Notes: a model not told the origin generated them from the sequence alone. A stretch of 64,000 bases of DNA from Acidimicrobiaceae bacterium (GCA_009837445.1 VXTM01000021.1:118767-182766), one strand, 5' to 3'. Shown: positions 1,568 through 58,588, counted from the stretch's first letter. Numbers and translations are program-made.

Positions 1568-2341
1568 CTACCGGCCCTTCGCGGCGCCGGTGCGGCGGAA
1601 GGTGACGCTCATCCGGGGCGGGGCGGAGGCAACCTTCGGTATCGAGTGCTCCCAGTCCTGCTGGCAGGAGCCGCCCATGACCAGCAGGTCGCCCGACGCC
1701 AGAGTGAACGAGCGGCTCCGGCCCCCGCCCACTGGCCTAAGTGTCCGCTCTTGTTCGCTGCGCTCACGGGCCGCTCGGGCCACGGCCTCGCCCGTATGGG
1801 CCGCATCCGCATGCCGACCCGCTCGGCCTCTGAGCAGGAACCGGCGGGGGCCTCCCAGCGACACGATCGCCACCACGGCGTTGGCGGGGTCGATCCCGAT
1901 CCGGTCACTGTGCCAGGCCACCGAGTCCCGGCCTCCGCGGTAGTAGTTGACCCAGACCGAGTTGAACCGGCAGCGGTAGCGGTCGCCCAGAGCCGAGGCC
2001 ATCTCGTCGATGACGGTGGGAACACCGACCGACCGGAGCCGCAGGTGGGCTCCCAGACGCGGTTCCTCCACCATCTGCCCGTACATCGGGCGCTCGGCCC
2101 GGGTCCACCGCAGCTCCGCAGCGAGATGCTCGAGAAGCTCGTCGCCGCCCTGCAGCCACCGGGTCGCCACCTCGATCCAGCTCCTGCCGTCCAGCTCCAG
2201 GTGCTCCACCGCCGCCGAGGCGTTCACGGCCGGCTGCCCCTGGGCGAACAGGTCACCCTGGAACGGCCCCACATCGGCCTGAGTGCCTGACCTGGTGCCC
2301 CATCTGGCGCCCGATCCTTTGCCCGATCCGGCAGTCGTCAC
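1568..2341 (-). CDS. alkB: AlkB-like Fe(II)/2-oxoglutarate-dependent dioxygenase (alkylation repair) carrying an in-frame repeat insertion of about 30 aa
   Basis: Motifs NYYRGGRDSVAWHSDRIG (HxD), DLLVMGGSCQQDWEHSIPK (distal His) and MSVTFRR. The start is uncertain: GTG at 2341 or GTG at 2272 (VGPFQGDLF). The loop between FLLR and SFTLASGDLLVM is about 30 aa longer than I recall for AlkB-family proteins and is encoded by repeat copy 1. Confidence 0.75.
   Translation of the reverse strand: MTTAGSGKGSGARWGTRSGTQADVGPFQGDLFAQGQPAVNASAAVEHLELDGRSWIEVATRWLQGGDELLEHLAAELRWTRAERPMYGQMVEEPRLGAHLRLRSVGVPTVIDEMASALGDRYRCRFNSVWVNYYRGGRDSVAWHSDRIGIDPANAVVAIVSLGGPRRFLLRGRAGRHADAAHTGEAVARAARERSEQERTLRPVGGGRSRSFTLASGDLLVMGGSCQQDWEHSIPKVASAPPRMSVTFRRTGAAKGR
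1743..1831 (-). repeat. Dispersed ~90-96 bp repeat, copy 1 (inside the alkB CDS, in frame)
   Basis: Reverse complement reads AGAGGCCGAGCGGGTCGGCATGCGGATGCGGCCCATACGGGCGAGGCCGTGGCCCGAGCGGCCCGTGAGCGCAGCGAACAAGAGCGGAC. It aligns end to end with copies 4, 5 and 6. Confidence 0.85.
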
Positions 2342-2354
2342 GAGGCCAATGTAG

Positions 2355-2368
2355 CGAACATATGTTCG
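2355..2368. promoter_or_regulatory. LexA-type SOS box (perfect palindrome CGAACATATGTTCG) in the alkB / MBOAT divergent intergenic region
   Basis: A 14-nt perfect palindrome with a GAAC-N4-GTTC core, as in the Gram-positive/actinobacterial LexA operator consensus. It lies 14 nt upstream of the GTG at 2341. Confidence 0.55.
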
Positions 2369-2425
2369 TCATCAAAGCCGGGGTCAGGTGGTCGCCTGGC
2401 AGACCGGAACTAGCGTTCCCCGGCG

Positions 2426-3964
2426 GTGCTGTTCCCCACGTTCACCTTTGCGGCGTTCTTCGCCGTGGTCCTGCCGGTGAGCTGGGCTCTGAAACGGTTC
2501 CCGACGCCGTGGAAGCTGTTCGTCCTGGGCGCCTCGTACTGGTTCTACGCGGCCTGGGACCGGCGTTTCGTGCTGCTGCTGGTGGCCATGACCCTGGTGA
2601 ACGCGGCCGCGGCCCGGATGAACCGGCGATTCGCCCACCCCGGCGCCCGCCGGGCCGCGTTGGCGGTGGCGGTGGTCTTCGACCTCGGGGTGCTGGCCTT
2701 CTTCAAGTACTACGGCTTCTTCACCCAGAGCCTGGAGAGCAGCTTCGGGATCTCCAGCCCGGCTCTGAGCATCGTGCTGCCCATCGGCATCTCCTTCTTC
2801 ACGTTCCAGGCCATCAGCTACGCGGTGGACGTCCACCGGGGTGACACCGATCCCGCGCCGCTGCTCGACTTCGCCGTCTACCTGTCGTTCTTCCCCCAGC
2901 TGGTGGCCGGGCCGATAGTCCGGGCCAGGGAGTTCCTCCCGCAGATGCGGTTCCCGCGCCGGTCCCGCCACCGGGGCAACGGATCCGGCCGGCGTGAGCT
3001 CGAGGAGCCGGTGCAGTTGGAGCTGTGGTCGGATCGGGGCCTCGACCGGATCGAGCTGGGCCGGGCGGCCCAGCTGATCGGCAGGGGGATGTTCAAGAAG
3101 GTGGTGGTGGCCGACTTCCTGGCCGGGGCCATAGTGGACGAGGCGTTCGCCTCCCCGGGCAGCTACGGCGCCGTCGACGTGCTCTTCGGGGTGTACGGCT
3201 ACGCGGTCCAGATCTACGCGGACTTCTCGGGCTACACCGACATGGCCATCGGAGTGGCCCTGCTGATGGGATTCCGTTTCCCGCAGAACTTCGACCGGCC
3301 CTACGCGGCGGTGTCGATCCAGGACTTCTGGCGGCGCTGGCATATGACGCTGTCGCGCTGGCTGCGCGACTACCTGTACATCCCCCTGGGCGGAAACCGG
3401 CGGGGCCGGGTGCGCACCTACGTGAACCTGCTCGTCACGATGGGGCTGGGCGGCCTGTGGCATGGGGCGGCCGGCGTGTTCGTCGTCTGGGGCCTCTACC
3501 ACGGCGTCGGGCTGGCAGCCGAGCGGCTGGCCGGCCAATTGCGGCCGGCCCGAGCCTTGGCCGGGAGAGCACCCGACGCCGGCCCGGCCGCGTCGCGGGC
3601 CTCGAGCGCACCTGGTGCCGGATCGGCGCTGGGGGAGTGGCTGCGGGTGCTGGCCGTGTTTCACTTCGTGTGCGCGGGCTGGGTGCTGTTCAACAGCGAG
3701 ACGCTGGCCCACGCCGGTGACGTCTTCGAGCGCCTGCTGTCGGGGTGGGGGACCGGCACCGAGCTGCTCACACCGACGGTGCTGGCCGTGATCGTGGGAT
3801 CCGTCCTGGCCCAGTACGTGCCGCTCGACTTCGCCGAACGTTGGTCGAAGCGGACGGCGGCGGCCCCCTCCGCGGTGACCGCGGCCGCGTTCGCGGTGTG
3901 GACAATGATCGTGGTGGCGCTCGGCCCCGAGGGCGTCGCCGACTACATCTACTTCCAGTTCTGA
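2426..3964 (+). CDS. MBOAT-family membrane-bound O-acyltransferase (AlgI/DltB/PatA-like)
   Basis: 512-aa polytopic ORF with GTG start. Motifs include ISFFTFQAISYAVDV, FPQLVAGPIVRA, FWRRWHMTLSRWLRDYLYIPLGGNRRG (conserved His) and LWHGA. Confidence 0.85.
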   Translation: MLFPTFTFAAFFAVVLPVSWALKRFPTPWKLFVLGASYWFYAAWDRRFVLLLVAMTLVNAAAARMNRRFAHPGARRAALAVAVVFDLGVLAFFKYYGFFTQSLESSFGISSPALSIVLPIGISFFTFQAISYAVDVHRGDTDPAPLLDFAVYLSFFPQLVAGPIVRAREFLPQMRFPRRSRHRGNGSGRRELEEPVQLELWSDRGLDRIELGRAAQLIGRGMFKKVVVADFLAGAIVDEAFASPGSYGAVDVLFGVYGYAVQIYADFSGYTDMAIGVALLMGFRFPQNFDRPYAAVSIQDFWRRWHMTLSRWLRDYLYIPLGGNRRGRVRTYVNLLVTMGLGGLWHGAAGVFVVWGLYHGVGLAAERLAGQLRPARALAGRAPDAGPAASRASSAPGAGSALGEWLRVLAVFHFVCAGWVLFNSETLAHAGDVFERLLSGWGTGTELLTPTVLAVIVGSVLAQYVPLDFAERWSKRTAAAPSAVTAAAFAVWTMIVVALGPEGVADYIYFQF

Positions 3965-5205
3965 TGCGCAGGCTCCTGGTGAGGCGGACCCGGCGGTGGC
4001 TGAGCTTCGTGGTCGAGGCTGTGGGCCGCAGGCTGCGAGGGCTGTGCCGGGCGGTGGGCCAGGTCCGACCGCCGCTCCCGGACACCGGTGACCACGAGAC
4101 ACCGACGAAGTCCGTGCGGGCCTCGGTCCTGTCGGCGACCCTGTGCCTGGGGGTGGCCGCCCTGCTCGTCAGCGGCAAGATCGTGGAGATCGCCGACCGG
4201 CTGCCTCTGGGCCCGGATCGGGACCGCTGGCTGGAGGCAGCCACCGAGACCGACGACCTGGCCAACAGCGTGTCACTGAACCGTCCCTACGACCTGCTGC
4301 GCGACCTGCGGGGTGTCGGGGACGAGGCCGGCCAGCAGATTGATGTGATCGGCGACGTGGAGGACCTCCTGCAACCCGAGGCACCCACCGAGCCCGACCA
4401 GGCGATCGACGACGCCGGGGCGCCCAGCTCGTCGGGCGAGTCCCCGGTGGCCCCGACCACCACCGCGGCCACCCCAAGCCCGACCACCACGACGGTGCCC
4501 GAGGACCCGCCGGCCTACGTTCGCCCCGTGCCGGTGACGTCCGAGACTCCCCTGAGGGTCTGGGTGGCGGGCGACAGCCAGGCCCTCTACCTCGGGCAGG
4601 GCTTGAGGCGCGACAGCCCCCTCACGGACGTGATGGAGATAACCCTCGACCAGCGGCACTCCACCGGCCTGTCCCGTCCGAGCTACTTCAACTGGCCGGT
4701 TCACCTCTTCGCGATCGCAGGGACCTACAACCCCGAGCTGGTGGTGGCCACCCTGGGCAGCAACGACTGGCAGTCCATGACAGCGCCGGGCGGCGACCTC
4801 CTCGACCGGGGGACCGACGAATGGAACGCCGAGTGGTCCCGGCGCCTCGGCGTCCTCTTCGACGTCCTGAAGCCTCGTCACCGGCACGTGATCTGGGTCG
4901 GCCTGCCCCCGACCCGCCGCGACGACTTCCGGGAGGGCTACGCGCTCATGAACCAGCTGGCGGCGGCCGAGGTGGCGAAACGAGACTTCGTCTCCATGAT
5001 CGACATCTGGGACATGTTCGGCGGCGACGAGCCCTACCGCGACGCGGTCCCATCGCCCGACGACCCCGAGGGCAGGCCGGTGCTCGTTCGCCAGCAGGAC
5101 GGGGTGCACCTCAACCGGACAGGCTCGAGCTGGGTGGTGGGCGTGATCAGCGGCGAGATCCAGCAGATCATCGACAGGATCAGCCCCCAGAGGCCGAGCG
5201 GGTAG
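3964..5205 (+). CDS. SGNH/GDSL-type hydrolase (DUF459-like), membrane-anchored partner of the MBOAT
   Basis: The ATG at 3964 overlaps the MBOAT stop (TGATG). It has an N-terminal TM segment (LSATLCLGVAALLVSG) and a Pro/Thr linker. SGNH blocks are VWVAGDSQ, TLGSNDWQ and QDGVHLN. The last 5 codons (QRPSG-stop) are encoded by the repeat-head motif. Confidence 0.7.
   Translation: MRRLLVRRTRRWLSFVVEAVGRRLRGLCRAVGQVRPPLPDTGDHETPTKSVRASVLSATLCLGVAALLVSGKIVEIADRLPLGPDRDRWLEAATETDDLANSVSLNRPYDLLRDLRGVGDEAGQQIDVIGDVEDLLQPEAPTEPDQAIDDAGAPSSSGESPVAPTTTAATPSPTTTTVPEDPPAYVRPVPVTSETPLRVWVAGDSQALYLGQGLRRDSPLTDVMEITLDQRHSTGLSRPSYFNWPVHLFAIAGTYNPELVVATLGSNDWQSMTAPGGDLLDRGTDEWNAEWSRRLGVLFDVLKPRHRHVIWVGLPPTRRDDFREGYALMNQLAAAEVAKRDFVSMIDIWDMFGGDEPYRDAVPSPDDPEGRPVLVRQQDGVHLNRTGSSWVVGVISGEIQQIIDRISPQRPSG
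5189..5205 (+). repeat. Solo copy of the repeat 5' head (AGAGGCCGAGCGGGTAG) forming the C-terminus and stop of the SGNH gene
   Basis: Reads cAGAGGCCGAGCGGGTAGgcg. Compare copy 5 aAGAGGCCGAGCGGATAGgcg and the 46854 site tAGAGGCCGAGCGGATAGggc. Confidence 0.55.
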
Positions 5206-5213
5206 GCGTCGGG

Positions 5214-5762: not shown

Positions 5763-5882
5763 GCGTCGGGTCTTCCAGGTAGGGGACTGGTGGGAGCGGC
5801 ACGGTGACGATCCGGCAACCCGATAGCGGTGGCGGTGCGGCGGGGTGGCGGTGTGGCACCATCTAGGGCCGTGGTGTCGACC

Positions 5883-6795: not shown

Positions 6796-8253
6796 TTGTG
6801 GGCCGTGCCCCGACGACTCGAGATCGAACTCACCAGCCGCCGAGACGACGGCACCTGGACGTGGAGGGCCGCCGGCGCACGGCAGCCCAAGGGCGAGGTC
6901 TCGGGCGACCTGGTTCCCGACGCGGCCGCGGTCGGCTCGGTGCTGAAGGCCGAGGTGGACGGTGGACTGGACGGTATAGAGATCACCGCCCTGGCAGCCC
7001 CCCGAACCCGCGCGGAGCCCGCAGGACGACTCGAGTTGATCGGAGGGAGCGCGGGACCGCCGGTTACCACCGCCCTGGTGTCGCGTTCCGGGCGCCGCAG
7101 CCGCGGCGACCGAGGCTTCTCGGACGACGATGGGCACTCCCCGGGCGGGCGGCGGCGCGGCCGTGACCAGCGCGAGGCGCGCAAGGGCCGCGACCGCAGG
7201 GACCGCTCCGAGCGTGACTCACGCCGCAAGGACCGGGGCGGCGACGGCGCCCGGGAGGGCGGCGAGGGCCGCAAGCCCCACCGCGATCGTGACGGTCGCG
7301 GCGGCCGCCGCGACCGCGACTCCGACTCGGGCCGCGACGCCGGGCGGGACCGCCGGCGCGACCGGCGCAGCGACGAGCAGCGCGCCTCGAAGGGCCCCCG
7401 GTCCAAGGAAGGCAAGCGCCCCACCACGGCTCCCCGTCCAAGGACGCCCGGCCTCAAAGCCAAGCGGGTCCATCGCCAGGCGGCGCTGGAGGCACTCCCG
7501 GAGGAGCAGAGGCCTCTGGCTCGCGAGGTGCTCAAGGGCGGGGTGCCCGGCGTGCGCCGCTCGATCGACCGCATGAACGCCAAAGCCGCCAAGGAAAAAC
7601 TCCCCCAGATCAAGTCGGATCCGATCCTGGCGCTGGCGGAGCAGCTCGCGCCCGTCATGAAGGCCGCAGAGTGGCATGACCGGGCCGACGCCGCCCTCGC
7701 CGGCATCGCCAAGATCGACCTGCGGGACATCCGCTCCGTGATCGCGGCGGCCGACCGGGCCGCCCGCGATGACGAGACCAGGGCCCTGGCCGAGAGCCTA
7801 CGAGCCGGGCTGATCCAGCGCCTGGAGGTGGACCACCGCAAGTGGCTGGACGAGTTGGCCGGAACCATCGGCGAGGGTCGCACCGTAAGGGCGCTGCGCA
7901 TCAGCTCCCGGCCGGTCAAGCCCGGCTCGCCGCTGCCGCCCGATATGGCCGAGCGCCTCGCCAATATGGCCGCCGCCGACCTGAACCCGACCGCCAACCA
8001 GCAGCGCTGGGCCACGGTGGTGGACTCGGTGGCGGTCTCCCCCGTCCGCACGCAGGTTGTCCCCGAGGGCATTCCCGAGAGACCCAGCGACGACCTGATG
8101 GCCACTATCCGCCGGCTGGCAGACCGGGTTCCCCAGATAGCAGCGCTCTTCGGCATCGAGCCAGCGCCAGCTGCGCAGCCGAGACGGCGCCCACCCCCTC
8201 CCCCGCCGAAACCCGCGGCGGACGGCGAGACGGCGGCTGAAGAGTCTCAATGA
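6796..8253 (+). CDS. Conserved hypothetical protein with a central Arg/Asp/Glu-rich low-complexity linker
   Basis: 485-aa ORF with TTG start. The N-terminal (~95 aa) and C-terminal (~270 aa) parts have ordinary composition. The antisense 544-aa ORF is Ser/Arg/Ala-rich, typical of a GC-rich shadow frame. Confidence 0.6.
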   Translation: MWAVPRRLEIELTSRRDDGTWTWRAAGARQPKGEVSGDLVPDAAAVGSVLKAEVDGGLDGIEITALAAPRTRAEPAGRLELIGGSAGPPVTTALVSRSGRRSRGDRGFSDDDGHSPGGRRRGRDQREARKGRDRRDRSERDSRRKDRGGDGAREGGEGRKPHRDRDGRGGRRDRDSDSGRDAGRDRRRDRRSDEQRASKGPRSKEGKRPTTAPRPRTPGLKAKRVHRQAALEALPEEQRPLAREVLKGGVPGVRRSIDRMNAKAAKEKLPQIKSDPILALAEQLAPVMKAAEWHDRADAALAGIAKIDLRDIRSVIAAADRAARDDETRALAESLRAGLIQRLEVDHRKWLDELAGTIGEGRTVRALRISSRPVKPGSPLPPDMAERLANMAAADLNPTANQQRWATVVDSVAVSPVRTQVVPEGIPERPSDDLMATIRRLADRVPQIAALFGIEPAPAAQPRRRPPPPPPKPAADGETAAEESQ

Positions 8254-9011
8254 TCGAGTTCACCGCTGACGGCAACGTCGCCGTCATCACCATGAACCGT
8301 CCCGAGGCCCGCAACGCGGTCAACGGCGCCATCTCCAGCGGGCTTGAGGCCGCGATCGATCGGCTCGAGGCCGACGACTCGCTGTGGTTGGGGATCCTCA
8401 CCCACACCGGGCCGGTGTTCTCCGCCGGCGCCGATCTGAAGGCCATCGCGGAGGGACGGTTCCGGGAGTTGTCCACAGCCAGGGGCGGCTTCGGCGGGAT
8501 CGTGCTGCGCTCACGGACGAAGCCGCTGATCGCGGCCATCGACGGTCCAGCGCTCGCCGGCGGAACCGAGATCGCGCTCACCTGCGATCTGCGGGTGGCG
8601 TCGACCGCGGCCCGGTTCGGCCTCCCCGAGGTGAAGCGATCGCTGATCGCCGCCGCCGGCGGCCTCGTGCGGCTGCCGCGCACCATTCCTGCGGCCATCG
8701 CCATGGAGATGGTCCTCACCGGCGACCCGATCAGCGCCGAGCGGGCCCTGGATCTCGGTCTCATCAACGAGCTGTGCGAGCCCGGCCAGGCGTTCGACGC
8801 CGCCCGGCGCCTGGCGGACCGTGTCAATGCCAACGGCCCGCTGGCGGTGAGGGAATCCCGCAGGCTGGTGCTGGAGAGCTTCACCCAGACCGATGAGGAG
8901 TCGATCACCGCAGCCGGCAGGGCCCAGATGGGCCTGCGCAGCACCGAGGACTTCGCCGAGGGCCCTCGCGCCTTCATCGAGAAGCGGCCCCCGGTCTGGA
9001 AGGGCCGCTAG
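8250..9011 (+). CDS. Enoyl-CoA hydratase/isomerase (crotonase family)
   Basis: The ATG overlaps the upstream stop (ATGA). Motifs VAVITMNRPEARNAV, FSAGADLKA and GPALAGGTEIALTCDLRVAS. Confidence 0.85.
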   Translation: MIEFTADGNVAVITMNRPEARNAVNGAISSGLEAAIDRLEADDSLWLGILTHTGPVFSAGADLKAIAEGRFRELSTARGGFGGIVLRSRTKPLIAAIDGPALAGGTEIALTCDLRVASTAARFGLPEVKRSLIAAAGGLVRLPRTIPAAIAMEMVLTGDPISAERALDLGLINELCEPGQAFDAARRLADRVNANGPLAVRESRRLVLESFTQTDEESITAAGRAQMGLRSTEDFAEGPRAFIEKRPPVWKGR

Positions 9012-9026
9012 AGGCCGAGCGCGAAC
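9009..9026 (+). repeat. Solo repeat-head-like motif (TAGAGGCCGAGCGCGAAC) filling the gap between two convergent stops
   Basis: Its TAG is the crotonase stop, and the NUDIX stop follows at 9027. It matches the head consensus in 13 of the first 14 positions. Confidence 0.45.
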
Positions 9027-10448: not shown

Positions 10449-10603
10449 CTCTACTGCTGAGGGGTCGCGGCCGGGGGACGTGGGCGGATCATAGACACAG
10501 ATCGACGAAGTGCGACGGCATTTCCGGGCGGCGCGACTAGGCGACTGCTCGAGTATGCGAGCGAATCCGGCTCATACCAGGCCAGGCCGTGGCTCGAGCC
10601 GGC

Positions 10604-12247
10604 TTACAGGCTCGAGGACGGGTGGGACTGCGATGCCCTCAGTTGCTCGGCCCGCTTCTCCGCGTCGAGCCGGCCCAGCCCGAGATCCTGCTCATGGTTG
10701 ACGAACGACATGAGCTCCGCGACCGCGACGTGACCGGCCTCCTCGGCGATGAGACGGTGCATCTGCTGGCACACGCGCCGGTAGGCCGGATGTCCCTGCA
10801 GGGTGGTGCGCAGCTCGACCATGTGCATGGCCTCGCGGGCGTTCATCTGCATCGAGTAGCGCACCCGGTAGGCGAGGGCGACTGCGTAGGCGGCCTGATC
10901 CGGCAGCTCGGCGCTGAGCGCCTCGTAGAGCCGGGCCGACCGGCCCATCACCTCGTCGAACTGCTCGTCCACACCGGCCGCGCCGACCGCTTCGGGCCGG
11001 ACGAAGCCGTGGCGGGTGGACAGGGGCTGCCATTCGATGGTGAGCATCCGGTGGCGCTGCAGGTCGCGGAACGCCCCGTAGTCGGACAGCACATCGAAGC
11101 GGTAGTAGACGCGCTCGAGGGCCCGGCCGGGCCGGTGGCGGCGGTTCGTGCGCTCACCGCAATAGGACCGCACCACATCGACGCGCTCGGCGGCCGACAT
11201 GGACCTCACCCTGGCCTCGATGGTGCGCTCCGGAAGCGACGTGTGGGGGTACAGCATCGCGGTGATCACCTTCGTCTCCCCGTCGGGATCGAAGTCCATC
11301 AGCTCCACCGAGTCGTCGGTCACCGGGCCTCCGACGGCGTCGCCGAATACCCGGCCGGCCAGGTCGTCCATGGCGGCGCGGTTGCCCGCCATGTAGCGGG
11401 TGGTGAGCTCGCCCCGGTCGGGCAGGTCCACCCGCTTCAGGAACGATGGGATCACCTTGCGCAGTTCGGTGAGCATCATCTCGGCATAGGAGCGCGACTC
11501 GGGAAGGGGGTGGGCCCGCATCCGCAGCAGCAGGGCCTCATAGGACTGGCCCGTCCCGTAGATGCCCACGTTGCTCAGGGACGCAGCCGGCAGCATCCCG
11601 CGGATGGAGTCCAGCGCCCGGGCCTTGATGGCCTGCCGGTAGGCGAAGTCAGAGTCGCCCTCCTGCTTGGGAACGTTGGCCCGGAAGAAGTCCTGCATGA
11701 CCGGGACGAGCTCCGAGTAGGTCGTGAACATGCGGTCGATGTCGCCCACATAACGGGTGCCCAGCGACGAGTTGAGCACCTGGGCGTCCCGGTAGTAGCG
11801 GTACCGCCCGCCCAGCCGCTGGTCGTAGGCGATGTAGCGGGTGCTCTGCTCGAGGTAGGCCATCAGCCGGCCCCACTCCAGCACTTTGGTGAGGAGGTTG
11901 GAGGCCTGCTCGCAGGCCAGATGGACACCGCCCAACTGGGCCACGGAGTCGTCGCCGTACTCGAAGAAGACCCGGTCGTACAGGGCCTCGGCTCTGCGCA
12001 GGCCGACGGTTGCGTCGATGGTGATGTCGCCCGTGATGTCCAAGTCGTCGACGAACTCGTCGAGGAACAGCCGGCGCAGACTCGACATCGAGCGCGAGTA
12101 GCGGGCGAACAGGGCGCCCTTCACGACCTCGGGCAGGTTCACCAGCGCGAACACCGGCTGGTCCAGGTTGGTGAAGTACCGGCGCAGTATGTCGGCCTCG
12201 TCCGCAGAGAAGGACTCAGCCGCGTACAGGTTCACGGGGCGCGACAC
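10604..12247 (-). CDS. Long (547 aa) ThyX/Thy1-domain protein (FAD-dependent thymidylate synthase family)
   Basis: Motifs ALFARYSRS, DLQRHRMLT (RHR motif) and HMVELRTTLQGHPAYRRV. It is about twice the length of canonical ThyX, and the Ser of the RHRxxS signature is Thr. Confidence 0.6.
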   Translation of the reverse strand: MSRPVNLYAAESFSADEADILRRYFTNLDQPVFALVNLPEVVKGALFARYSRSMSSLRRLFLDEFVDDLDITGDITIDATVGLRRAEALYDRVFFEYGDDSVAQLGGVHLACEQASNLLTKVLEWGRLMAYLEQSTRYIAYDQRLGGRYRYYRDAQVLNSSLGTRYVGDIDRMFTTYSELVPVMQDFFRANVPKQEGDSDFAYRQAIKARALDSIRGMLPAASLSNVGIYGTGQSYEALLLRMRAHPLPESRSYAEMMLTELRKVIPSFLKRVDLPDRGELTTRYMAGNRAAMDDLAGRVFGDAVGGPVTDDSVELMDFDPDGETKVITAMLYPHTSLPERTIEARVRSMSAAERVDVVRSYCGERTNRRHRPGRALERVYYRFDVLSDYGAFRDLQRHRMLTIEWQPLSTRHGFVRPEAVGAAGVDEQFDEVMGRSARLYEALSAELPDQAAYAVALAYRVRYSMQMNAREAMHMVELRTTLQGHPAYRRVCQQMHRLIAEEAGHVAVAELMSFVNHEQDLGLGRLDAEKRAEQLRASQSHPSSSL

Positions 12248-12288
12248 TAGAGGCGCAGGCGGGGCTGGGCGCGGATCAGGAGAAGGCT

Positions 12289-13461
12289 TCAGGTCGCCGC
12301 GAATGCGGCTCGTGCGGCCGGCATCGCGGAGGCGTCCAGCCAGCAGTCCAGGGCGGTCATGGCCAGCACCTTGGCGCCGTCGATGACGGCCGCGTCGCCC
12401 TCCGGCCCGCGGGCGTACTCGGCGAAGGCCGGAGTGTGGATGGCGACGTCGTCGGGAGCGACCTTGACCATGGGGTGTATGGAGGGGACGGCATAGCTGA
12501 CGTTGCCCATGTCGGTGCTGCCCACCACCCGGGCGTCCGAGCCGGAGACGGTCTCACGGCCCACCGCGGCGAGATTGTCCAGGTAACGATCGAGCAGCAC
12601 CGGGTTGTCGTTCATGTCGGCGTACGCCGGGTCTCCCCACTCGATGTCCAGCTGGCAGCCGGCCGCGTCCGCGCCCGCCTGCAGGCAGGCGGCCACCCGC
12701 TCCTTGAGCGGCTCAACGGTGGCCAGGTTGGTCGAACGCACGTACCACTCGGTCTCGGCGGTGACCGGGACGATGTTGGCCTTGGCGCCGCCGTCGATGA
12801 AGATGCCGTGGATCCGCTCGTCGTCGCGGATGTGCTGCCGCAGCGCGGCGATCGCGTTGTAGCCGAGCACGGCGGCGTCGAGCGCGTTGCGTCCCTTCTC
12901 GGGGGCGGCGGCGGCATGGGCCGCCGCGCCGGTGTAGCGGGCGTTGAGACGCTGCACCGCCACCGCGTGGAACACCTTGAGCTCGTGGTTGGCGGGATGG
13001 ATCATCATGGCCGCGTCGGCGTCGGAGAACGCGCCCGCTCGCAGCATGATCTCCTTGCCTCCCCCGCCTTCCTCCGCAGGGGTTCCCACCACTGCCACCC
13101 GGCCGCCGGCCTCACCGGCCAGCGCGGCCAGGGCGAGGCCGGCCCCCAGGCCGGACGCCGCGATGATGTTGTGCCCGCAGGCGTGGCCGATCCCAGGGAG
13201 GGCGTCGTATTCGCAGACCACCGCCACCAGCGGCCCGTCGCCGTCGCCGGCCCGGGCCTCGAATGCGGTCTCGAGGCCGTAGGCGGCGCGCTGCACCGCC
13301 AGTCCGTGATCGGCCAGCACCCCGGTCAGCAGGTCGTGGGCGTGGTGCTCCTCGAAGCACAGCTCGGGCCGCTCATGGATGCGGTGGGACACATCGAGCA
13401 GCTCCGGTGCCAGCCGGTCGATCTCGTCGCAGGCGCGCTGCTTGGCTTCAGTGATCTCCAT
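12289..13461 (-). CDS. M20-family amidohydrolase/peptidase (AbgB/HipO-like)
   Basis: Motifs HERPELCFEEHHAHDLL, ACGHNIIAASGL and GTPAEEGGGGK. Confidence 0.85.
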   Translation of the reverse strand: MEITEAKQRACDEIDRLAPELLDVSHRIHERPELCFEEHHAHDLLTGVLADHGLAVQRAAYGLETAFEARAGDGDGPLVAVVCEYDALPGIGHACGHNIIAASGLGAGLALAALAGEAGGRVAVVGTPAEEGGGGKEIMLRAGAFSDADAAMMIHPANHELKVFHAVAVQRLNARYTGAAAHAAAAPEKGRNALDAAVLGYNAIAALRQHIRDDERIHGIFIDGGAKANIVPVTAETEWYVRSTNLATVEPLKERVAACLQAGADAAGCQLDIEWGDPAYADMNDNPVLLDRYLDNLAAVGRETVSGSDARVVGSTDMGNVSYAVPSIHPMVKVAPDDVAIHTPAFAEYARGPEGDAAVIDGAKVLAMTALDCWLDASAMPAARAAFAAT

Positions 13462-17601: not shown

Positions 17602-17853
17602 CTAGCCAGGGGGTCGGCGGCGGCTGCGACCGCGCCGGGTGCCACGGACCCGGTCGGCTCGGGTCCTGGTGGCCTCGGCGTGGTCACCCAATCGGGCGGC
17701 CGAGCGGGACAGCTCGTCGCCGGCCACCGCAGTCGCCGACGACCTTCTCAGCGCCCCGGTCAGCTCCGCGGCGGCTTGACCCACGCTCCGGAGGCCCGTG
17801 ACAAGCACGACCAGTGCGATGACGGTGGCCGCTGCCGGCGCCAGCATCCACAT
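17602..17853 (-). CDS. Possible small membrane protein (83 aa)
   Basis: ATG at 17853. It has one hydrophobic segment (MWMLAPAAATVIALVVLVTGL) and a basic tail. There is no recognisable family and it lies in a GC-rich context, so it could be spurious. Confidence 0.3.
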   Translation of the reverse strand: MWMLAPAAATVIALVVLVTGLRSVGQAAAELTGALRRSSATAVAGDELSRSAARLGDHAEATRTRADRVRGTRRGRSRRRPPG

Positions 17854-17888
17854 GGCCTCCAACGCTACTGCCGGCTGCCGCCGGTCTC

Positions 17889-45672: not shown

Positions 45673-46856
45673 CCGGTGCCGCCTACATCGTCGACGCGGT
45701 GCGAACGCCGGTCGGCAAGATCGGTGGGGGCCTAGCCGGGGTCCGCCCCGACGACCTGGCAGCCACCGTCATCGCGAACCTGCTCGAGCGCTCCCCCGGC
45801 CTCGATCCGGCCACCATCGACGATGTCCATTTCGGCAACAGCAACGGTGCGGGCGAGGAGAACCGCAACGTGGCCCGCATGGCCGCCCTGCTGGCCGGCA
45901 TGCCCACCTCGGTTCCCGGAACGACGGTCAACCGGCTGTGCGGATCGGGGCTGGAGGCCGTTGTCGGAGCCAGCCGGGCCATCGCGGTCGGAGACGCCGA
46001 CCTGTGCATCGCCGGCGGCGTCGAGTCGATGACCCGGGCTCCGTGGGTGGTGGCGAAGCCGGAGCGTCCCTACGAGCGCGGCCATCAGCAGATGCACTCC
46101 ACCACGCTGGGCTGGCGGCTGGTCAACCCGCGCCATCCTGATCGTTGGACGGTGCCTCTGGGCGAGGGAGCCGAGATTCTGGCCGAGAAGTACGCCATTA
46201 CCCGGGCCCTGCAGGACGGCTTCGCCCTGCGCAGCCATCAGAAGGCGGCCGCAGCCTGGACCCGCGGCGAATTCGCCGACGAGGTCGTGGGTGTCCATGG
46301 CGCCGAACTCGACCGCGACGAGACGATCAGGCCCGACACATCCCTCGACGGGCTGGCTCGGCTGCGACCGGTGTTCCGCCGCGACGGCTCGGTGACCGCA
46401 GGCAACTCCTCGCCCATGAACGACGGCGCCGCCGCGCTGCTGCTGGCATCCGAGGCCGGCCTCGCCTCGACGGGGCGGACACCCCTCGCGCGGGTGATGA
46501 GCCGGGCCGTGAGCGGCGTCGACCCGGATCTCTACGGCATCGGCCCGGTCGAGGCCGCCCGCACGGCTCTCAAGCGGGCCGGCATCGGCTGGTCGGACCT
46601 GGCCGCGGTCGAACTGAATGAGGCCTTCGCAGCCCAGTCACTGGCGTGTCTGGCGGAGTGGCCCGAGCTCGACCGGCGGATCGTCAACCCGCTGGGAGGC
46701 GCCATCGCCATCGGCCACCCCATCGGAGCCAGCGGGGCGCGCATCCTCACGACGCTGGCCCATCACCTGCGGCACCGGGGAGGCCGCTACGGCCTGGCCG
46801 CCATGTGCATCGGGGTCGGGCAGGGCATCGCGGTCACCATCGAGTCCTGCGCCTAG
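45669..46856 (+). CDS. Acetyl-CoA C-acyltransferase (thiolase II; PcaF-like by context)
   Basis: The GTG overlaps the LivM-like stop (GTGTGA). It has NRLCGSGLEAV (active-site Cys), NEAFAAQ, GHPIGASGARI and CIGVGQG. Confidence 0.85.
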   Translation: MTGAAYIVDAVRTPVGKIGGGLAGVRPDDLAATVIANLLERSPGLDPATIDDVHFGNSNGAGEENRNVARMAALLAGMPTSVPGTTVNRLCGSGLEAVVGASRAIAVGDADLCIAGGVESMTRAPWVVAKPERPYERGHQQMHSTTLGWRLVNPRHPDRWTVPLGEGAEILAEKYAITRALQDGFALRSHQKAAAAWTRGEFADEVVGVHGAELDRDETIRPDTSLDGLARLRPVFRRDGSVTAGNSSPMNDGAAALLLASEAGLASTGRTPLARVMSRAVSGVDPDLYGIGPVEAARTALKRAGIGWSDLAAVELNEAFAAQSLACLAEWPELDRRIVNPLGGAIAIGHPIGASGARILTTLAHHLRHRGGRYGLAAMCIGVGQGIAVTIESCA

Positions 46857-46975
46857 AGGCCGAGCGGATAGGGCGGCGTGGTCATTCCCGCTCTTGTTCG
46901 CTGCGCTCACGGGCCGCTCGGGCCACGGCCCCGCCCGTATGAACCGGGTTTGGCTCGCCTGCCCGCGGGGCCTCT
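46855..46975 (-). repeat. Dispersed repeat, copy 4: a full 96-bp copy in minus orientation (46880-46975) abutted by a plus-oriented solo head (46855-46872)
   Basis: TAGAGGCCGAGCGGATAGGG is followed by GGTCATTCCCGCTCTTGTTCGCTGCGCTCACGGGCCGCTCGGGCCACGGCCCCGCCCGTATG...CCCGCGGGGCCTCT. It fills the gap between the convergent thiolase and dioxygenase stops. Confidence 0.85.
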
Positions 46976-46978: not shown

Positions 46979-47800
46979 CTAGCCCGTCGGCTCGAGTACG
47001 AAGTCGTAGTCGCAGCGACCGCCGTTCATGTCGACGATCAGCGAGTCGCGCACACCGAAGACCACGTCACTGTCGAGGAAGTCGCTCTCGCTGTCGAAGA
47101 GGTGGGTGATCACCGTCTTGTGCCCCGGCGCCGAGACTACGAAGTGCACGTGCGCGGGACGCCAGTTGTGGCGTCCGGTGGCGTGGAGCAGCGCCCCGGC
47201 GGGGCCGTCGTCGGGAACCGGGTACGACACCGGCCGCACGGTGCGCACCTCGTAGCGCCCGTCGACGCCGGTGGTGAAGACGCCCCGCATGTTCAACGGG
47301 GTCTGATCCGAGTCCTGGACATCGTAGAAGCCGTTGCTGGCCGCCTGCCACACATCCAGTGTCGCCCCCTCGATCGGTCCGCCTCCCAGCGAGCTGACCT
47401 CCCCCAGTATCGTCAGCGGCTCGTCCGCATCCATGGGGTCCACGACTATCGAGTCGCCCATCTGGTGCGGTGTGGCTCCCTCCACGTGGAACGGGCCGAA
47501 GACGGTGGGCTCGGTCGTCCCCTCGGCCCCCATCTGGTTGATCATCTCCACCAGCATCGAAACGCCGAGCGTGTCCGACAGCAGGATGAACTCCTGGCGC
47601 TTCTCGTCGCACATGTGCCCGATGTCGGCGAGGGCCTTCATGCTCGCGAACCACTCCTCGCGAGTTAGGCCGACTTCAAGAACAAACTCGTGCATGTGCC
47701 GGATTGCGCACTTCATGATCTCAGCGAGCCTCGCGTCGGGAGCGTCATCAAAGCGGGACAGGACCTCCGCCAGGTGCTCGGCGGGCGTGATGTTGGACAC
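46979..47800 (-). CDS. Intradiol ring-cleavage dioxygenase (hydroxyquinol 1,2-dioxygenase-like)
   Basis: GTG start with RBS AAGGAG. The N-terminal helical domain (RLAEIMKCAIRHMHEFVLEVGLTREEW) and the segment GRHNWRPAHVHF are typical of catechol/hydroxyquinol 1,2-dioxygenases. Confidence 0.75.
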   Translation of the reverse strand: MSNITPAEHLAEVLSRFDDAPDARLAEIMKCAIRHMHEFVLEVGLTREEWFASMKALADIGHMCDEKRQEFILLSDTLGVSMLVEMINQMGAEGTTEPTVFGPFHVEGATPHQMGDSIVVDPMDADEPLTILGEVSSLGGGPIEGATLDVWQAASNGFYDVQDSDQTPLNMRGVFTTGVDGRYEVRTVRPVSYPVPDDGPAGALLHATGRHNWRPAHVHFVVSAPGHKTVITHLFDSESDFLDSDVVFGVRDSLIVDMNGGRCDYDFVLEPTG

Positions 47801-50420: not shown

Positions 50421-51620
50421 ATGACTGCGGAGACCCGGGCCACCGACCCTTCAGCGACCGGCACGGCCGCTGAGACTGCCCCGCTCGACGGGATCCTCGT
50501 CGCCGACCTGTCCCGGGTGCTGGCCGGGCCGTACTGCACCATGCTCCTCGCCGATCTGGGGGCGACGGTCATCAAGGTGGAAAGCGCGGCCGGCGACGAC
50601 ACTCGGGCTTGGACCCCGCCGGAGAAGGACGGCATATCGACTTACTTTATGTCCATCAACCGGAACAAGCGGTCGATCGTTCTGGACTTCCGCGACCCAG
50701 ACGACGTGGCGCTGGTCCACGAGCTGTTCCGGCGGGCCGACGTGGCCATCGAGAACTTCAAGCCGGGTGCGCTGGCCAAGTTCGGGCTCGACTACGAGAC
50801 TGCCCGGGCCGTCAATCCGGCCCTCATCTACACCTCGATCAGCGGTTTCGGCACGGCCGAGGGTGCGTCGCTGCCCGGTTACGACCTGGTGGTGCAGGCC
50901 GTGTCGGGGCTAATGAGCCTCACCGGCGACGCCGACGGCCCCGCCTACCGGGCGGGCATCTCGGTGTTCGATGTCATGACCGGGCTCCACGCCACCATCG
51001 GGATCCTGGCCGCCCTCCACCACCGCAGCCTGACCGGCCAGGGCCAGTTGGTGGAGCTGAACTTGCTGTCGTCGGCGCTGTCGGGCCTCGTCAACCAGAC
51101 CGGCGCCTATACCGCTTCGGGGACCGTGCCCCACCGAATGGGCAATGCCCACCCGAGCGTCTACCCCTACGAGGTGATACCGGCCAAGGACCGGGACATG
51201 ATCATCACCGCCGCGAACGACCGGCAGTTCAAGGCCCTGTGCGAGGTTCTGGGCATCGGCGAGCTGGCTACCGACGAGCGATTCAGGCTCAACGCCGACC
51301 GCACCCGCAACCGTGACCAGATGCACTCGCTGCTCATGGAGCGGGTGGCCCAATGGAACGCCGACGACCTCTTCATCGCCCTGAACGACGCGGGAGTGCC
51401 CTGCGGGCCCATCAACTCCATCCGCGAGGGCATCGAACTGGCCGAGCGTCTCGGCCTCGAGCCCAGGGTGACCCTCGGCGCCGGCGACGAGAGTGTCGAC
51501 CTGGTGCGCAATCCCATCGGGTTCAGCAATGCCTCGCTGCGCTACGAGCACCCGCCCCCCGGACTGGGAGAGCACAGCGACGACCTTCGGGACTGGCTGT
51601 CCAAGAGGCCGAGCGGATAG
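50421..51620 (+). CDS. Family III CoA-transferase (CaiB/BaiF family)
   Basis: Segments LDGILVADLSRVLAGPYCTMLLADLGATVIKVE, ENFKPG and SGFG. The last 5 codons (KRPSG-stop) are encoded by the head of repeat copy 5. Confidence 0.85.
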   Translation: MTAETRATDPSATGTAAETAPLDGILVADLSRVLAGPYCTMLLADLGATVIKVESAAGDDTRAWTPPEKDGISTYFMSINRNKRSIVLDFRDPDDVALVHELFRRADVAIENFKPGALAKFGLDYETARAVNPALIYTSISGFGTAEGASLPGYDLVVQAVSGLMSLTGDADGPAYRAGISVFDVMTGLHATIGILAALHHRSLTGQGQLVELNLLSSALSGLVNQTGAYTASGTVPHRMGNAHPSVYPYEVIPAKDRDMIITAANDRQFKALCEVLGIGELATDERFRLNADRTRNRDQMHSLLMERVAQWNADDLFIALNDAGVPCGPINSIREGIELAERLGLEPRVTLGAGDESVDLVRNPIGFSNASLRYEHPPPGLGEHSDDLRDWLSKRPSG

Positions 51621-51699
51621 GCGAGACGATGCGGCCCATACGGCGCGAGGCCGTGGCCCGAGCGGCCCGTGAGCGAAGCGAACAAGAGCGGGAATGACC
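51604..51699 (+). repeat. Dispersed repeat, copy 5 (best full-length reference copy, 96 bp)
   Basis: AGAGGCCGAGCGGATAGGCGAGACGATGCGGCCCATACGGCGCGAGGCCGTGGCCCGAGCGGCCCGTGAGCGAAGCGAACAAGAGCGGGAATGACC. Confidence 0.85.
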
Positions 51700-51793
51700 C
51701 CCTGTCGGCGCGAGGCGCTTGCACCTATCCGCGTGGCCCCTACGCCGCAGCCCGACACATAGACAGCCGAATTACCGATCACGGGAGCGGGCA

Positions 51794-52609: not shown

Positions 52610-52623
52610 CTGCTCGGCCTCTA
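52610..52623 (-). repeat. Solo repeat-head-like motif on the minus strand (TAGAGGCCGAGCAG) whose TAG is the protease stop codon
   Basis: The plus strand reads ctgctcggcctcta. It lies between convergent stops at 52591 and 52621. Confidence 0.4.
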
Positions 52624-53466
52624 GTCGCAGGCGGGGACTTCGACGGGCTGATTGAGGTCGGACGAGGCGAGCAGCGTGGCCAGCGGACCGGCCCGGGTGG
52701 CGTACGCCACCCCTCCCCCGCCGCGGCGCGACGCGCCCCAGGCGACGCCCACAGCCGTGGTCTGGCCGTCTACGCCGGTCACCAGCGCAGCGCCGGAGTC
52801 GCCCACCTCCGTCTGGGCGGCGAGGAGCCACGACTGTCGCTCGATGCGCTCGTCCCCGTTCACTATTTCCGTCCGCACCGTGACCGGACGGTCGATGCGG
52901 AACGGCGTCGGGTCCGGGGATGCCTCGGCCTCCCAGGCCAGCACCGCGCCGACGGTGCCGTCAGGAACGGCCTCGCTCAACGGCAGGGGACGCAGGCCGG
53001 CACCGGAGACCCGCAGCACGGCCAGATCGTTCACGGCGTCGAAGGCCACCAGCACCGCGCTGAGCTCCCGGCCGTCGTGCAATTCGACCGTCGGCTCGTC
53101 CATGCCGACCATCAGATGGGCGATGGTGACGACGACGTCGCCGTCCGTGACCGCGAAGCCACTCCCCTCGCGCACGATCCCGCGGCAGGCCGGACCGTAG
53201 ACCCTCACCGACGACTCCACCGCCGCGGCGAGATCCGCTCTCGACAGGCGGTGGTCGTCAGGCACCGGACCCGGGTCGGGCGGGTCGTCGAGCGGCGGCC
53301 TGATCGACGAGGTCGCTGGGACCGTCCCAGCACCTAGCGGAGCCTGTGGCTGGCGGTTACCCGACGCCGTGGTCCCGTCCTCGAGCACCGCCACCGCCGC
53401 GATGACCACGCCCGCAACGACAGCCGCGACAGCCACCCCGAGTAGGAGCCACCGCCCCGACGTCAC
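52621..53466 (-). CDS. Membrane-anchored trypsin-like (S1 family) serine protease
   Basis: It has an N-terminal TM (WLLLGVAVAAVVAGVVIAAVAVL), TIAHLM (His), NDLAVLRV (Asp) and GDSGAALV (Ser). The GTG start overlaps the trmI stop (GTGA). Confidence 0.7.
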   Translation of the reverse strand: MTSGRWLLLGVAVAAVVAGVVIAAVAVLEDGTTASGNRQPQAPLGAGTVPATSSIRPPLDDPPDPGPVPDDHRLSRADLAAAVESSVRVYGPACRGIVREGSGFAVTDGDVVVTIAHLMVGMDEPTVELHDGRELSAVLVAFDAVNDLAVLRVSGAGLRPLPLSEAVPDGTVGAVLAWEAEASPDPTPFRIDRPVTVRTEIVNGDERIERQSWLLAAQTEVGDSGAALVTGVDGQTTAVGVAWGASRRGGGGVAYATRAGPLATLLASSDLNQPVEVPACD

Positions 53467-56844: not shown

Positions 56845-56859
56845 CTCGTCCGCCCGCGG

Positions 56860-58455
56860 CTATTCGCTGTCGGCCAACTCAGCGATCGGGGCGACCACCG
56901 GCTGCCTCGCCGGCGCCGGATGCAGCGCCGCGTCCGCGGAGGACGGACCGTAGGGGTGGCCCGACACCGCACGGATCAGGCCCTGCTGCAGATCGTTGCA
57001 GGTGCTCAGGAACAGGCCCTCGCGGTTGGCGATCAGAGAGAACGTGAGCACGTCGCCGTTGCGGGCCACGGTCACTCCGGCCAGCGCCGACACATCGTTG
57101 AGGGTCCCGGTCTTGGCCCACACCGTGCGGGACAGCGGGCTCTGCCCGTCGGGGCCGGCGCCGGCCCCTGCGGCCGGCTCGAGGCCGGCGTCGCAGTCGC
57201 GGAGGGTCCCGCTCTCCCCCACCACGGCCAGGCCCCTTACGAGCGGCGAGTCCGGCCCGGCCCGAAGGAGCAGCTCGGCAATGAGGTCGCAGGTCAGCCG
57301 GTTGTGAACCGACAGGCCCGAGCCGTCGGCGATGACGATCCCGGCAGTCTGAACGCCCAGCAGACGCTCCAGCACGTCCTGCACGCCCTGGACCGCCTCG
57401 GCCCGGGCCGATCCCGACAGCCGCCTGCCGATCTCCTTGAGCAGCATCTCAGCCGTGGTGTTGTCGGAGTTGCGCAGCATGCGGGCGACGATCTCCGCCA
57501 TCGGCGGCGACTCGACGGTGGCCAGCGAGCGAAGCTCCGACAGCGGCGGCGCAGTCCCCTTGCCGGCGTCGGCGGAAACACCGACTCCCCGGGCCTCGAT
57601 CAGTCCGTCCAGTACCTGGGCCGCATGGAGGGCGGGATCCGGGGCCCGCACGTTCTGGCTCCGGCTGGCGGAGTCGGCCGAGGGCGGGAAGGAGACGTAG
57701 CCGTCGTTCAGCAGCAGCGCAGAGAGCGGGCCGACCTGGTTGTTGTTGACGTAGGACCGCTTCCAGACGGAGCCGGCGTCGGGCTCGACGACCTGGGTCG
57801 TGTAGTCCCGCTCCGCCTCCGGGAAGCGGGACTCGTCGGCCACGATGCCCCCCTCGACGGTGAGGATGCCCTGCGCCCGTAGGGCAGCGGCCGCTTCGAC
57901 CGCCAACTCGGTGAAGTCGGTGTGGACGATGGGCTGGTCGAAGCGCCTCACGTAGGCGAGCGTCGACAGGACCGGATCGCCCCCTCCCACCAGGTAGACG
58001 TCGCCCACGAGCACGCCGTCGGCGGCTGTGCTCAGCGCGTCGGCGCGGACGAGCACCTCGGTCGTGTACGTCGCGGCCGGACCTGCGATCTCGAGGATCG
58101 CGGCCGCGGTGACGACCTTCATCAACGAGGCCGGCACCATCAGCGCATCAGCCCGTTCCGAAACGACGGGCGCCGCGCCGCGGTAGACGGCCAGGCACGT
58201 CTGCGGCGGAGCGCTCGGCTCCTCGACCACACCGGAGAGCCTCTCGAGCAGGCGGGTCCGGGTCACGGGCGCCGAGACCCATCCCGGCGTCCGGCGCACG
58301 CTCAGTATCGGCGTGGCCACCACCATTTCGGGCGGACCGGTCTCGGTGATCCACCCCGGGTCGGAGGAGGCGTCGGTACGCCGAGCCTGGACGAACGAGC
58401 CGACCGCGGTGGTCAGCAGGGCCGCCAGCAGGATCGAAACCAGGATCCGACGCAT
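56860..58455 (-). CDS. dacB: D-alanyl-D-alanine carboxypeptidase/endopeptidase (PBP4, peptidase S13)
   Basis: The ATG at 58455 gives the signal peptide MRRILVSILLAALLTTAVG. It has PASLMKVVT (SxxK), DGSGLS (SxN-like) and AKTGTL (KTG). The track start at 58533 lies in repeat copy 6. Confidence 0.8.
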   Translation of the reverse strand: MRRILVSILLAALLTTAVGSFVQARRTDASSDPGWITETGPPEMVVATPILSVRRTPGWVSAPVTRTRLLERLSGVVEEPSAPPQTCLAVYRGAAPVVSERADALMVPASLMKVVTAAAILEIAGPAATYTTEVLVRADALSTAADGVLVGDVYLVGGGDPVLSTLAYVRRFDQPIVHTDFTELAVEAAAALRAQGILTVEGGIVADESRFPEAERDYTTQVVEPDAGSVWKRSYVNNNQVGPLSALLLNDGYVSFPPSADSASRSQNVRAPDPALHAAQVLDGLIEARGVGVSADAGKGTAPPLSELRSLATVESPPMAEIVARMLRNSDNTTAEMLLKEIGRRLSGSARAEAVQGVQDVLERLLGVQTAGIVIADGSGLSVHNRLTCDLIAELLLRAGPDSPLVRGLAVVGESGTLRDCDAGLEPAAGAGAGPDGQSPLSRTVWAKTGTLNDVSALAGVTVARNGDVLTFSLIANREGLFLSTCNDLQQGLIRAVSGHPYGPSSADAALHPAPARQPVVAPIAELADSE

Positions 58456-58499
58456 CGCCAAGCATGGTACGCCGCGCGTCCCAGCGGACCCGCTCACCC

Positions 58500-58588
58500 A
58501 GAGGCCGAGCGGTTGGCGGCGAGCCCAGCCCATACGGACGAGGCCGTGGCCGAGCGGCCCTCAGGTCGCAGCGAACCAGAGCGGGACC
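58500..58588 (+). repeat. Dispersed repeat, copy 6 (diverged)
   Basis: AGAGGCCGAGCGGTTGGCGGCGAGCCCAGCCCATACGGACGAGGCCGTGGCCGAGCGGCCCTCAGGTCGCAGCGAACCAGAGCGGGACC. Confidence 0.75.

Follow-up and report, generated by a model that had tools for sequence, protein, structure and literature searches.

The 64-kb stretch of DNA from an Acidimicrobiaceae bacterium that is analysed here (hereafter the window; G+C content 69.7%) carries a short repeat at six sites, all of which had been listed in a preliminary description of the same sequence. The 30-nucleotide (nt) core GGCCCGTGAGCGCAGCGAACAAGAGCGGGA has six matches with at most three mismatches in the window against none in 100 shuffled sequences, and a 45-nt core has four matches at the same tolerance, where shuffles lead one to expect zero. 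When the window was searched by nhmmer with a profile built from related copies, the same sites were picked up at 1744-1831 (-), 24562-24699 (+), 33372-33436 (-), 46873-46975 (-), 51604-51739 (+) and 58500-58586 (+). Outside the window, the exact 23-mer of the core recurs in at least 119 stretches of species-representative genomes, spread over dozens of metagenome-assembled genomes (MAGs), all of them Acidimicrobiia MAGs among the matches listed. The repeat is thus a dispersed family, as had been proposed, and chance similarity or a segmental duplication confined to the window can be dismissed, since no shuffle matches are expected and the loci are so many. We argue below that the family very probably consists of transposable elements of the miniature inverted-repeat kind (MITEs), whose likely driver, to judge from the sequences compared, is an insertion sequence (IS) of the IS5 family, 958-968 bp in length. 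This MITE family is apparently undescribed, and it is real, though ordinary in kind. The copies in the window, together with the genes into which or between which the first two have fallen, are as follows.

1739..1831, minus strand: copy 1; head, variable arm and core, about 93 nt (nhmmer E=5e-24)
1568..2341, minus strand: open reading frame (ORF) that hosts copy 1; AlkB-like 2OG-Fe(II) oxygenase (Pfam 2OG-FeII_Oxy_2)
24562..24693, plus strand: copy 2; head, variable arm and two tandem cores (24610-24693, period 43)
24317..24511, minus strand: pup (Pfam Pup), neighbour of copy 2
24696..26213, minus strand: dop (Pfam Pup_ligase), neighbour of copy 2
33382..33443, minus strand: copy 3; short form, head-TTGC-GAGGCC-core
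46855..46975, minus strand: copy 4; complete, 121 nt, head AGAGGCCCCGCGG, tail CCGCTCGGCCTCT, between convergent genes
51604..51741, plus strand: copy 5; complete, 138 nt (nhmmer E=4e-35, model positions 1-135)
58500..58642, plus strand: copy 6; diverged, with the variant core CCCTCAGGTCGCAGCGAAC (nhmmer E=1.5e-12)
10549..10599, plus strand: decayed seventh copy (nhmmer E=1.5e-6, model positions 10-59)

The anatomy of the element was worked out from 179 core matches in the window and in 119 fetched comparison loci, which are labelled here by L-numbers (L002, L078, L125 and so on). The element proper spans from the head GAGGCCGAGCGGATAGG to the tail CCTATCCGCGCNNGCTC, and its modules follow one another in the order head AGAGGCCGAGCGGATAGG, variable arm, pre-core GCGAGGCC, core, 3' arm and tail CCTATCCGCGCNNGCTCT. 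The variable arm falls into two main length classes, which place the core 55/56 or 65/66 nt from the head. The core, of about 40 nt, is present as one to six tandem units with a period of 43-45 (six units in L113, four in L083, three in L063 and two in the window), and is followed on its 3' side by ATGA or GTGA in some copies only. Complete copies are 122-150 bp long, copy 4 of the window being a 121-nt version, with lengths clustering at 137/138 and 145-150 nt; they are non-coding, dispersed and bounded by a terminal inverted repeat of 18-25 bp, the hallmarks of a MITE. The preliminary description had placed the six sites correctly, but had ended three of the copies, 4, 5 and 6, about 20-55 nt short of their true 3' ends, before the tail that is complementary to the head, and because the unit was truncated in this way its inverted repeats were missed. 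Shorter forms include head-TTGC-pre-core-core, a form of about 93 nt that runs from head to core only, core-less head-tail hairpins, and solo cores, solo heads and solo tails; the Poriferisodalis-type short form has the head GGCTGAGCC. Within the window, the decayed seventh copy retains the variable arm and pre-core segment only and has lost its core. The head of copy 6, GGTTGGCGGC, pairs with its tail GCCGCCAAATCC, and its variant core is also present in L026 and L045; copy 4 is found nearly identical in four further assemblies of the same organism. Two unusual arrangements were seen elsewhere. At 739-840 (+) of L096 the head alone is repeated three times in tandem with a 34-nt period (CCTAGAGGCCGAGCGGATAACGGGAACGCCGACT), so the end module can also form arrays. 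At 2150-2250 (+) of L099 the head/tail frame lies between GTAAG and GTAAG and holds about 60 nt of A+T-richer cargo in place of the core, so that these ends can evidently hold other inserts.

Neither the absence of a long hairpin and of long inverted repeats, nor the difference from classic MITEs, both of which had been suggested for the repeat, survives examination of the complete unit. The folding energy of a full copy is -75.7 kcal/mol (z = -4.5), by way of a stem that closes head on tail, and in 57 copies the tail agrees with the reverse-complemented head of 18 nt at 11 or more of the 18 positions. In an alignment of 28 copies, 78% of head/tail cells are paired, against 34-56% when the partner is slid, and compensatory changes occur at columns 13/129 and 14/128. 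Mismatches in this long stem are balanced (G.U 49 vs A.C 58), which points to an inverted repeat kept at the level of DNA and not to a strand-specific RNA helix. A second, shorter helix joins GGCC-GA-GC of the head to GC-GA-GGCC of the pre-core segment; its tandem G.A mismatch is kept in 85 copies, and compensated variants are found as GGCT/AGCC in seven copies and as GGCCCCGC/GCGGGGCC in three.

These two helices bear differently on the possibility that the repeat is in the first place a cis-element of the host, whether a structured RNA or a site bound by a protein, selected locus by locus and only secondarily mobile, acting for instance as an mRNA 3'-end stabiliser, attenuator or regulator. 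Such roles have been proposed for the repetitive extragenic palindromic (REP) sequences and bacterial interspersed mosaic elements (BIME), or for BOX elements. The tandem G.A mismatch and the compensatory variants of the second helix hint that one strand folds, whereas the head/tail stem lacks any excess of G.U over A.C, the core by itself gives a poorer fold than shuffled sequence (z = +1.5), and the repeat has no match in Rfam. RNAalifold, run for a single conserved RNA structure, returned just weak and mostly invariant pairs, and the 3' arm contains no single consistent covarying hairpin across copies. We consider a host-selected element of this kind unlikely, also in view of the insertion sites, to which we now turn.

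In 33 of 57 copies the same base stands immediately 5' of AGAGG and immediately 3' of the closing CTCT, a figure reached in none of 10,000 permutations, and the consensus of the flanks is C-Y-N-A|GAGG ... CCTC|T-N-A-G. The pattern implies a 3-bp T-N-A duplication, or one of TA within CTAG, around an element proper that would run from GAGG to CCTC. The MITE inserts at C-T(N)A-G sites and duplicates T-N-A. In a genome of 70% G+C, sites of this kind very often coincide with a stop codon (TAA, TGA or, in TAG, its TA), and for this reason copies abut gene ends on either strand. With gene ends called by our codon-usage gene caller, the junction falls exactly at the end of the stop codon of the upstream gene in the same orientation for 33 of 105 heads (TAG 21, TAA/TGA 9). 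The earlier observation that copies lie mostly at the 3' ends of genes is explained in the same way, and the landing on stop codons illustrates how a T-N-A target behaves in a genome so rich in G+C. Inside the window, the first bases of copy 3 overlap the TAG stop of a proteasomal ATPase gene (33442..35196, -). The tail end of copy 4 overlaps the TAG stop of a thiolase gene (45669..46856, +), and its head lies 3 nt past the TAG stop of a dioxygenase gene (46979..47800, -). The CoA-transferase gene 50421..51620 terminates at a TAG inside the head of copy 5 (GGATAGG). Three solo heads of 13-20 nt (AGAGGCCGAGCG..) are also present in the window, every one of them overlapping a stop codon.

5189..5209, plus strand: solo head AGAGGCCGAGCGGGTAGGCG; its internal TAG is the stop of gene 3964..5205
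9010..9022, plus strand: solo head AGAGGCCGAGCGC; overlaps the TAG stop of the enoyl-CoA hydratase gene 8250..9011
52610..52622, minus strand: solo head AGAGGCCGAGCAG; overlaps the TAG stop of gene 52621..53409 (-)

The cleanest case of insertion is the AlkB locus; that one copy sits inside a coding sequence (CDS) had rightly been stated, and this is copy 1. The AlkB ORF reads open through copy 1, which forms a 31-codon in-frame insertion; AlkB orthologues of 77-92% identity have 203-204 aa and do not have the 31 residues of the window protein, and two other orthologues have 46-47 extra residues at the same position. Where no insert is present, in L124, the locus reads CTGCTCAAACCCGCGGGT, and in L125 it reads CTGC[TCA]GAGGCC...GCACGATC[TCA]GGTCCGCGGGC, with a perfect duplication of TCA. 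The L125 insert of 135 nt, with its 3-nt duplication, amounts to 138 nt or 46 codons and remains in frame, and copy 1 of the window is the same insertion after an internal deletion that removed 45 nt from the 3' arm and tail and left 93 nt and 31 codons. At the same site L127 retains a solo head only, which marks solo heads as deletion remnants of full copies; the same probably holds for solo tails, for solo cores, for the 93-nt form that runs from head to core and for the other short forms. A short repeat standing in frame in a conserved gene, with the ORF intact (AlkB +31/+46 codons), recalls the Rickettsia palindromic elements, which reportedly insert in frame in conserved protein genes (Ogata et al. 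2000). The differences are that a single in-CDS case has been examined here, that most copies are intergenic and that a DDE transposase is indicated by the mechanism.

At many orthologous sites one genome has the element and a relative with flanks 85-96% identical lacks it; examples are L087/L055, L058/L048 (flanks 96% identical), L105/L037 (TGA..TGA) and L002/window. The last of these pairs extends over 11.7-19.1 kb of the window, where L002 is syntenic at about 80-89% identity and carries elements at places that lack them in the window.

12181..12370: empty site; a short-form element stands at the syntenic position in L002, none in the window
17778..17915: probable empty site; the flank-to-flank gap of the window is about 116 nt shorter than in L002, which has a full element, and pairwise alignment is poor across the junction

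That sites differ between close relatives in this way, and that the neighbours are unrelated housekeeping genes, also speaks against a host cis-element selected at each locus. A separate comparison concerned L024, which exceeds the syntenic L072 by two segments, one of about 1.0 kb and one of about 1.6 kb (492-1563 and 5021-6774). Repeat copies lie at or inside the edges of both, so the repeats mark breakpoints of gene content. The extra DNA, in which translations read by eye show an apparent aldehyde dehydrogenase and an ORF that is TIM-barrel-like, was considered as a carrier of the transposase and rejected, as it encodes ordinary genes.

The T-N-A duplication together with ends that start with GAG suggested a transposase of the IS5 family. 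As had been stated before, no transposase or integrase is found among the window's called genes that match Pfam, a few ORFs being without a match. Perfect pairs of head and reverse head 0.3-5 kb apart enclose only housekeeping genes, and an all-against-all megablast returned synteny only and no long repeats. A search for orphan tails led to L078, in which a tail directly follows a 294-aa ORF with the domains PF13340 DUF4096 and PF01609 DDE_Tnp_1. Homologues of this transposase are numerous, many of them on contigs of about 960-1000 bp, and their sources call them IS5 family transposases and assign them to Ca. Poriferisodalis, Acidimicrobiales and Acidimicrobiaceae. With a length of 958-968 bp, the IS has a single ORF of about 280 aa and GAGG/GAGC ends, and perfect TAA/TTA duplications flank it in each of the nine loci that were looked at, which represent at least eight distinct insertions. 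Its left inverted repeat (IRL) GAGGCCGCGCGGATAGGCG is identical to the MITE head GAGGCCGAGCGGATAGGCG at 18 of 19 positions, and its right inverted repeat (IRR), as reverse complement GAGCGTCAGCGGATAGGTG, agrees with the MITE tail GAGCGTGCGCGGATAGGTG at 17 of 19, so the asymmetry of head and tail in the MITE mirrors that of IRL and IRR in the IS. One transposase protein is encoded at six genomic places, four in the ENA sample that holds the 851-kb contig of the window organism and two on chromosome OZ220472.1. In L078 a single 8-kb locus holds both IS and MITE, in L129 the two are 117 nt apart, and chromosomes OZ220472.1 and OZ242344.1 carry both as well. From these data we infer mobilisation in trans, in which an IS5-family transposase (DUF4096 + DDE_Tnp_1, about 280 aa) would move the MITE by way of the near-identical ends. 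Within the IS5 family, the IS1031 group is what we take to be the best fit for the partner IS. Members of this group, as catalogued in ISfinder, are 850-1050 bp long and have a 3-bp T-N-A duplication, GAG ends and one ORF. Some copies of the IS lie in settings that look like mobile-element clusters: in L135-L138 (about 1295-1655) one IS5-family copy stands immediately upstream of a reverse-transcriptase gene (RVT_1), and in L133 another adjoins a different transposase, DDE_Tnp_1_4.

The family resembles IS5-derived bacterial MITEs in being small and non-coding, with terminal inverted repeats, T-N-A duplication and 5'-GAG ends that match a resident IS. It is unlike them in being G+C-rich and not A+T-rich, and in containing a core that does not derive from an IS, is conserved above the ends and can be amplified in tandem. 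With the Neisseria Correia elements and the REP/BIME sequences of E. coli it shares a high intergenic copy number, inverted ends and hairpins when transcribed, but there is no sequence similarity to either, and the defining features of REP and its REP-associated tyrosine transposase (RAYT) are missing. REP sequences and their REPIN doublets are imperfect palindromes of 20-40 nt with a conserved 5' GTAG, accompanied by a RAYT gene in the genome, and they are not known to make a target duplication; more generally, target duplication is not expected of HUH transposition. The Correia elements themselves are MITE-like and have a short, T/A-rich target duplication (see also PMC3049150). That our repeat could be REP/REPIN-like or IS200/IS605-like, transposing in single-stranded form through a tyrosine HUH transposase (RAYT/TnpA), would agree with the strand-specific G.A mismatches in the hairpin, the orientation bias described below and the high intergenic copy number. 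The 3-bp target duplication and the DDE IS with matching ends contradict this reading, and the repeat has no conserved GTAG, no fixed 4-5-nt target in the left flank and no doublet symmetry of the REPIN type. No RAYT/Y1 gene is present in the window or among the Pfam-scanned ORFs of the loci, the scan being of these and not of whole genomes. We therefore give this explanation almost no weight.

In architecture alone, the pneumococcal BOX elements are a close likeness, since paired end modules enclose one to six tandem middle modules in our repeat, and in BOX (boxA - boxB(n) - boxC) pairing end modules surround a middle module of about 45 nt in variable tandem number (PMC3049150); in both, the middle module has little interaction with the ends. 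The ends of BOX show only weak similarity to those of ISSpn2 (Croucher et al. 2011, PMC3049150), whereas here, in a different phylum, the target duplication and the match to IS ends are clear; no relationship in sequence is claimed. The tandem cores, with their period of 43-45, also call to mind the mycobacterial interspersed repetitive units (MIRUs), and a relative of these would spread by slippage or duplication and not by transposition. Both are actinobacterial repeats with units of about 45-53 nt, set in short tandem arrays between operon genes; MIRUs in general are 40-100-bp tandem units in operon intergenic regions. The reverse complement of the MIRU292 unit (PMC7977185) has GAGCGCAGCGA in common with the core, and by eye GAGCGG and ATGAC downstream are common to both as well. 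Under standard scoring, however, only this 11-mer aligns, and 128 of 5000 shuffles do equally well (p ~0.03, for one hand-picked comparison), so homology to MIRUs was rejected as not significant. In MIRUs the tandem units have small ORFs that overlap the start and stop codons of neighbouring genes; the periods of our arrays do not appear to be tied to overlapping codons of this kind, and inverted ends, target duplications and an IS partner, all present here, have not been described for MIRUs. Such a kinship is highly improbable.

Several observations weigh against a MITE driven by this IS, or are at least not accounted for by it. In about 35% of copies the left duplication has C instead of T as its first base, and several of the filled/empty junctions are messy, not clean. 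At one insertion site shared by L085 (about 700-900) and L116 (about 5400-5600), with flanks 93-97% identical and identical head and core, the variable arm of about 38 nt and about 16 nt past the core are wholly different. No arm matching either was found among the fetched copies, and the replacement suggests conversion from another copy or re-insertion. Genomes of the Poriferisodalis type and unclassified genomes of Acidimicrobiales contain the IS, as does the metagenome sample to which the window organism belongs; it has been placed neither in the window's own genome nor in a named Ca. Aldehydirespirator chromosome. The core was looked for inside the IS and is absent from it. The core is, moreover, more conserved than the ends of the MITE and is also found solo and in arrays, and a plain selfish MITE does not explain core conservation, solo cores or arrays. 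Between co-directional genes, copies in sense orientation exceed those in antisense by 64 to 27 (p = 1.3e-4), an excess that is not predicted by a symmetric target. The cargo between the ends of the MITE does not derive from the IS; it comprises the tandem-G.A hairpin and, after it, a near-invariant, unstructured core of about 40 nt, which can be amplified in tandem one to six times.

Around the core, invariance extends over about 45 nt, well past the 23-mer used for retrieval, and both arms vary; this contrast and the sense bias favour a host cis-element, as does the span of the family over three taxonomic families. The invariance is partly circular, because most of the fetched copies were retrieved by the exact core 23-mer, and the window's own copies show the same contrast of invariant core and variable arms. 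The in-CDS AlkB copies, which were retrieved by protein, have 1 and 4 changes per 48 core positions; the old copy in L126 is the one with 4, which speaks against a core selected for a host function. As to position, 13 of 15 solo cores follow a co-oriented gene, while copies as a whole are distributed across co-directional, convergent and divergent gaps as in the baseline, which again does not favour the host element. Between this and the plain MITE lies a compound possibility, for which our confidence is low: that a module of about 45 nt (the foot of the G.A hairpin and the core GGCCCGAGCGGCCCGTGAGCGCAGCGAACAAGAGCGGGA) is a functional cis-element that was captured and spread by the MITE. If so, gene ends in their hundreds, in no fewer than three Acidimicrobiales families, would have received it, and conservation, sense bias and arm replacement would reflect selection or directed conversion and not recent descent. 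The core could then be a platform that binds a conserved factor of the host or of transposition, or a strand-specific signal in RNA or single-stranded DNA. Any role of the core we likewise only infer, and this unexplained invariant core is the only part of the family that is possibly beyond the ordinary.

Members of at least three Acidimicrobiales families carry the repeat, and carriers of the 23-mer include Ca. Aldehydirespirator, Ca. Poriferisodalis, one member of the Microthrixaceae and many sponge-derived bins; one protein of the window is encoded identically on contigs of sponge metagenome assemblies, and the window's dioxygenase is present in 43 assemblies. L126, which carries the in-frame AlkB insertion, is a contig of the Tara Oceans assembly ERZ28653960, so the family may not be confined to sponge hosts. 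Copies occur about once per 10 kb in the window and about once per 22 kb among secondary copies in the fetched loci, so that hundreds of copies per genome, as had been estimated, are plausible. Rfam returned no match to the window at the gathering threshold and none on the element at E<=1 in four copy-rich loci, in keeping with the earlier remark that it was not recognised as an RNA family. Searches of IMG/VR viral contigs and PLSDB plasmids found no match to the repeat, and a full-text search of the literature, by sequence words and by Acidimicrobiia and sponge repeats, found no earlier description. Integron attC sites, CRISPR and ribozymes had been candidates and were dropped, the copies having no GTTRRRY ends, no spacer structure and no ribozyme cores.

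The MITE is thus a class of high-copy mobile DNA of uncultured, sponge-associated Acidimicrobiia that annotation pipelines ignore. Its insertions lengthen or interrupt ORFs, as in the CoA-transferase gene ending inside copy 5 and in AlkB; copies sit in operons such as dop-pup, mark the gene-content breakpoints between related genomes and probably fragment short-read assemblies. MITE and IS together form a ready-made marker with which strains can be typed and exchange can be followed between symbiont lineages of a common host. In the window, copy 2 lies antisense in the 184-nt gap between dop and pup of the Pup-proteasome operon (dop-pup-prcB-prcA-pafA), and with its two cores it could affect the coupling of the operon's genes.

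Some further features were noted in passing. In L015, Rfam PYLIS_3 (pyrrolysine insertion sequence, mttB) matches at 2091-2190 (+) with 44.9 bits (gathering threshold 38), inside the ORF 978..2618, an MTTB-family gene of a Ca. Aldehydirespirator MAG that has no internal stop as called. In the window, a 66-bp tandem repeat (3.3 copies, 81% matches) occupies 17206-17420 within gene 17107..17592 (-), which adjoins tatC, has only a weak Apolipoprotein-like Pfam match and may encode a repetitive amphipathic protein. Two window ORFs, 6796-8253 (+, 485 aa) and 9906-10448 (-, 180 aa), have good codon usage and are without a Pfam match, and the second of them contains acidic triplet repeats (TRF matches at 10097-10376).

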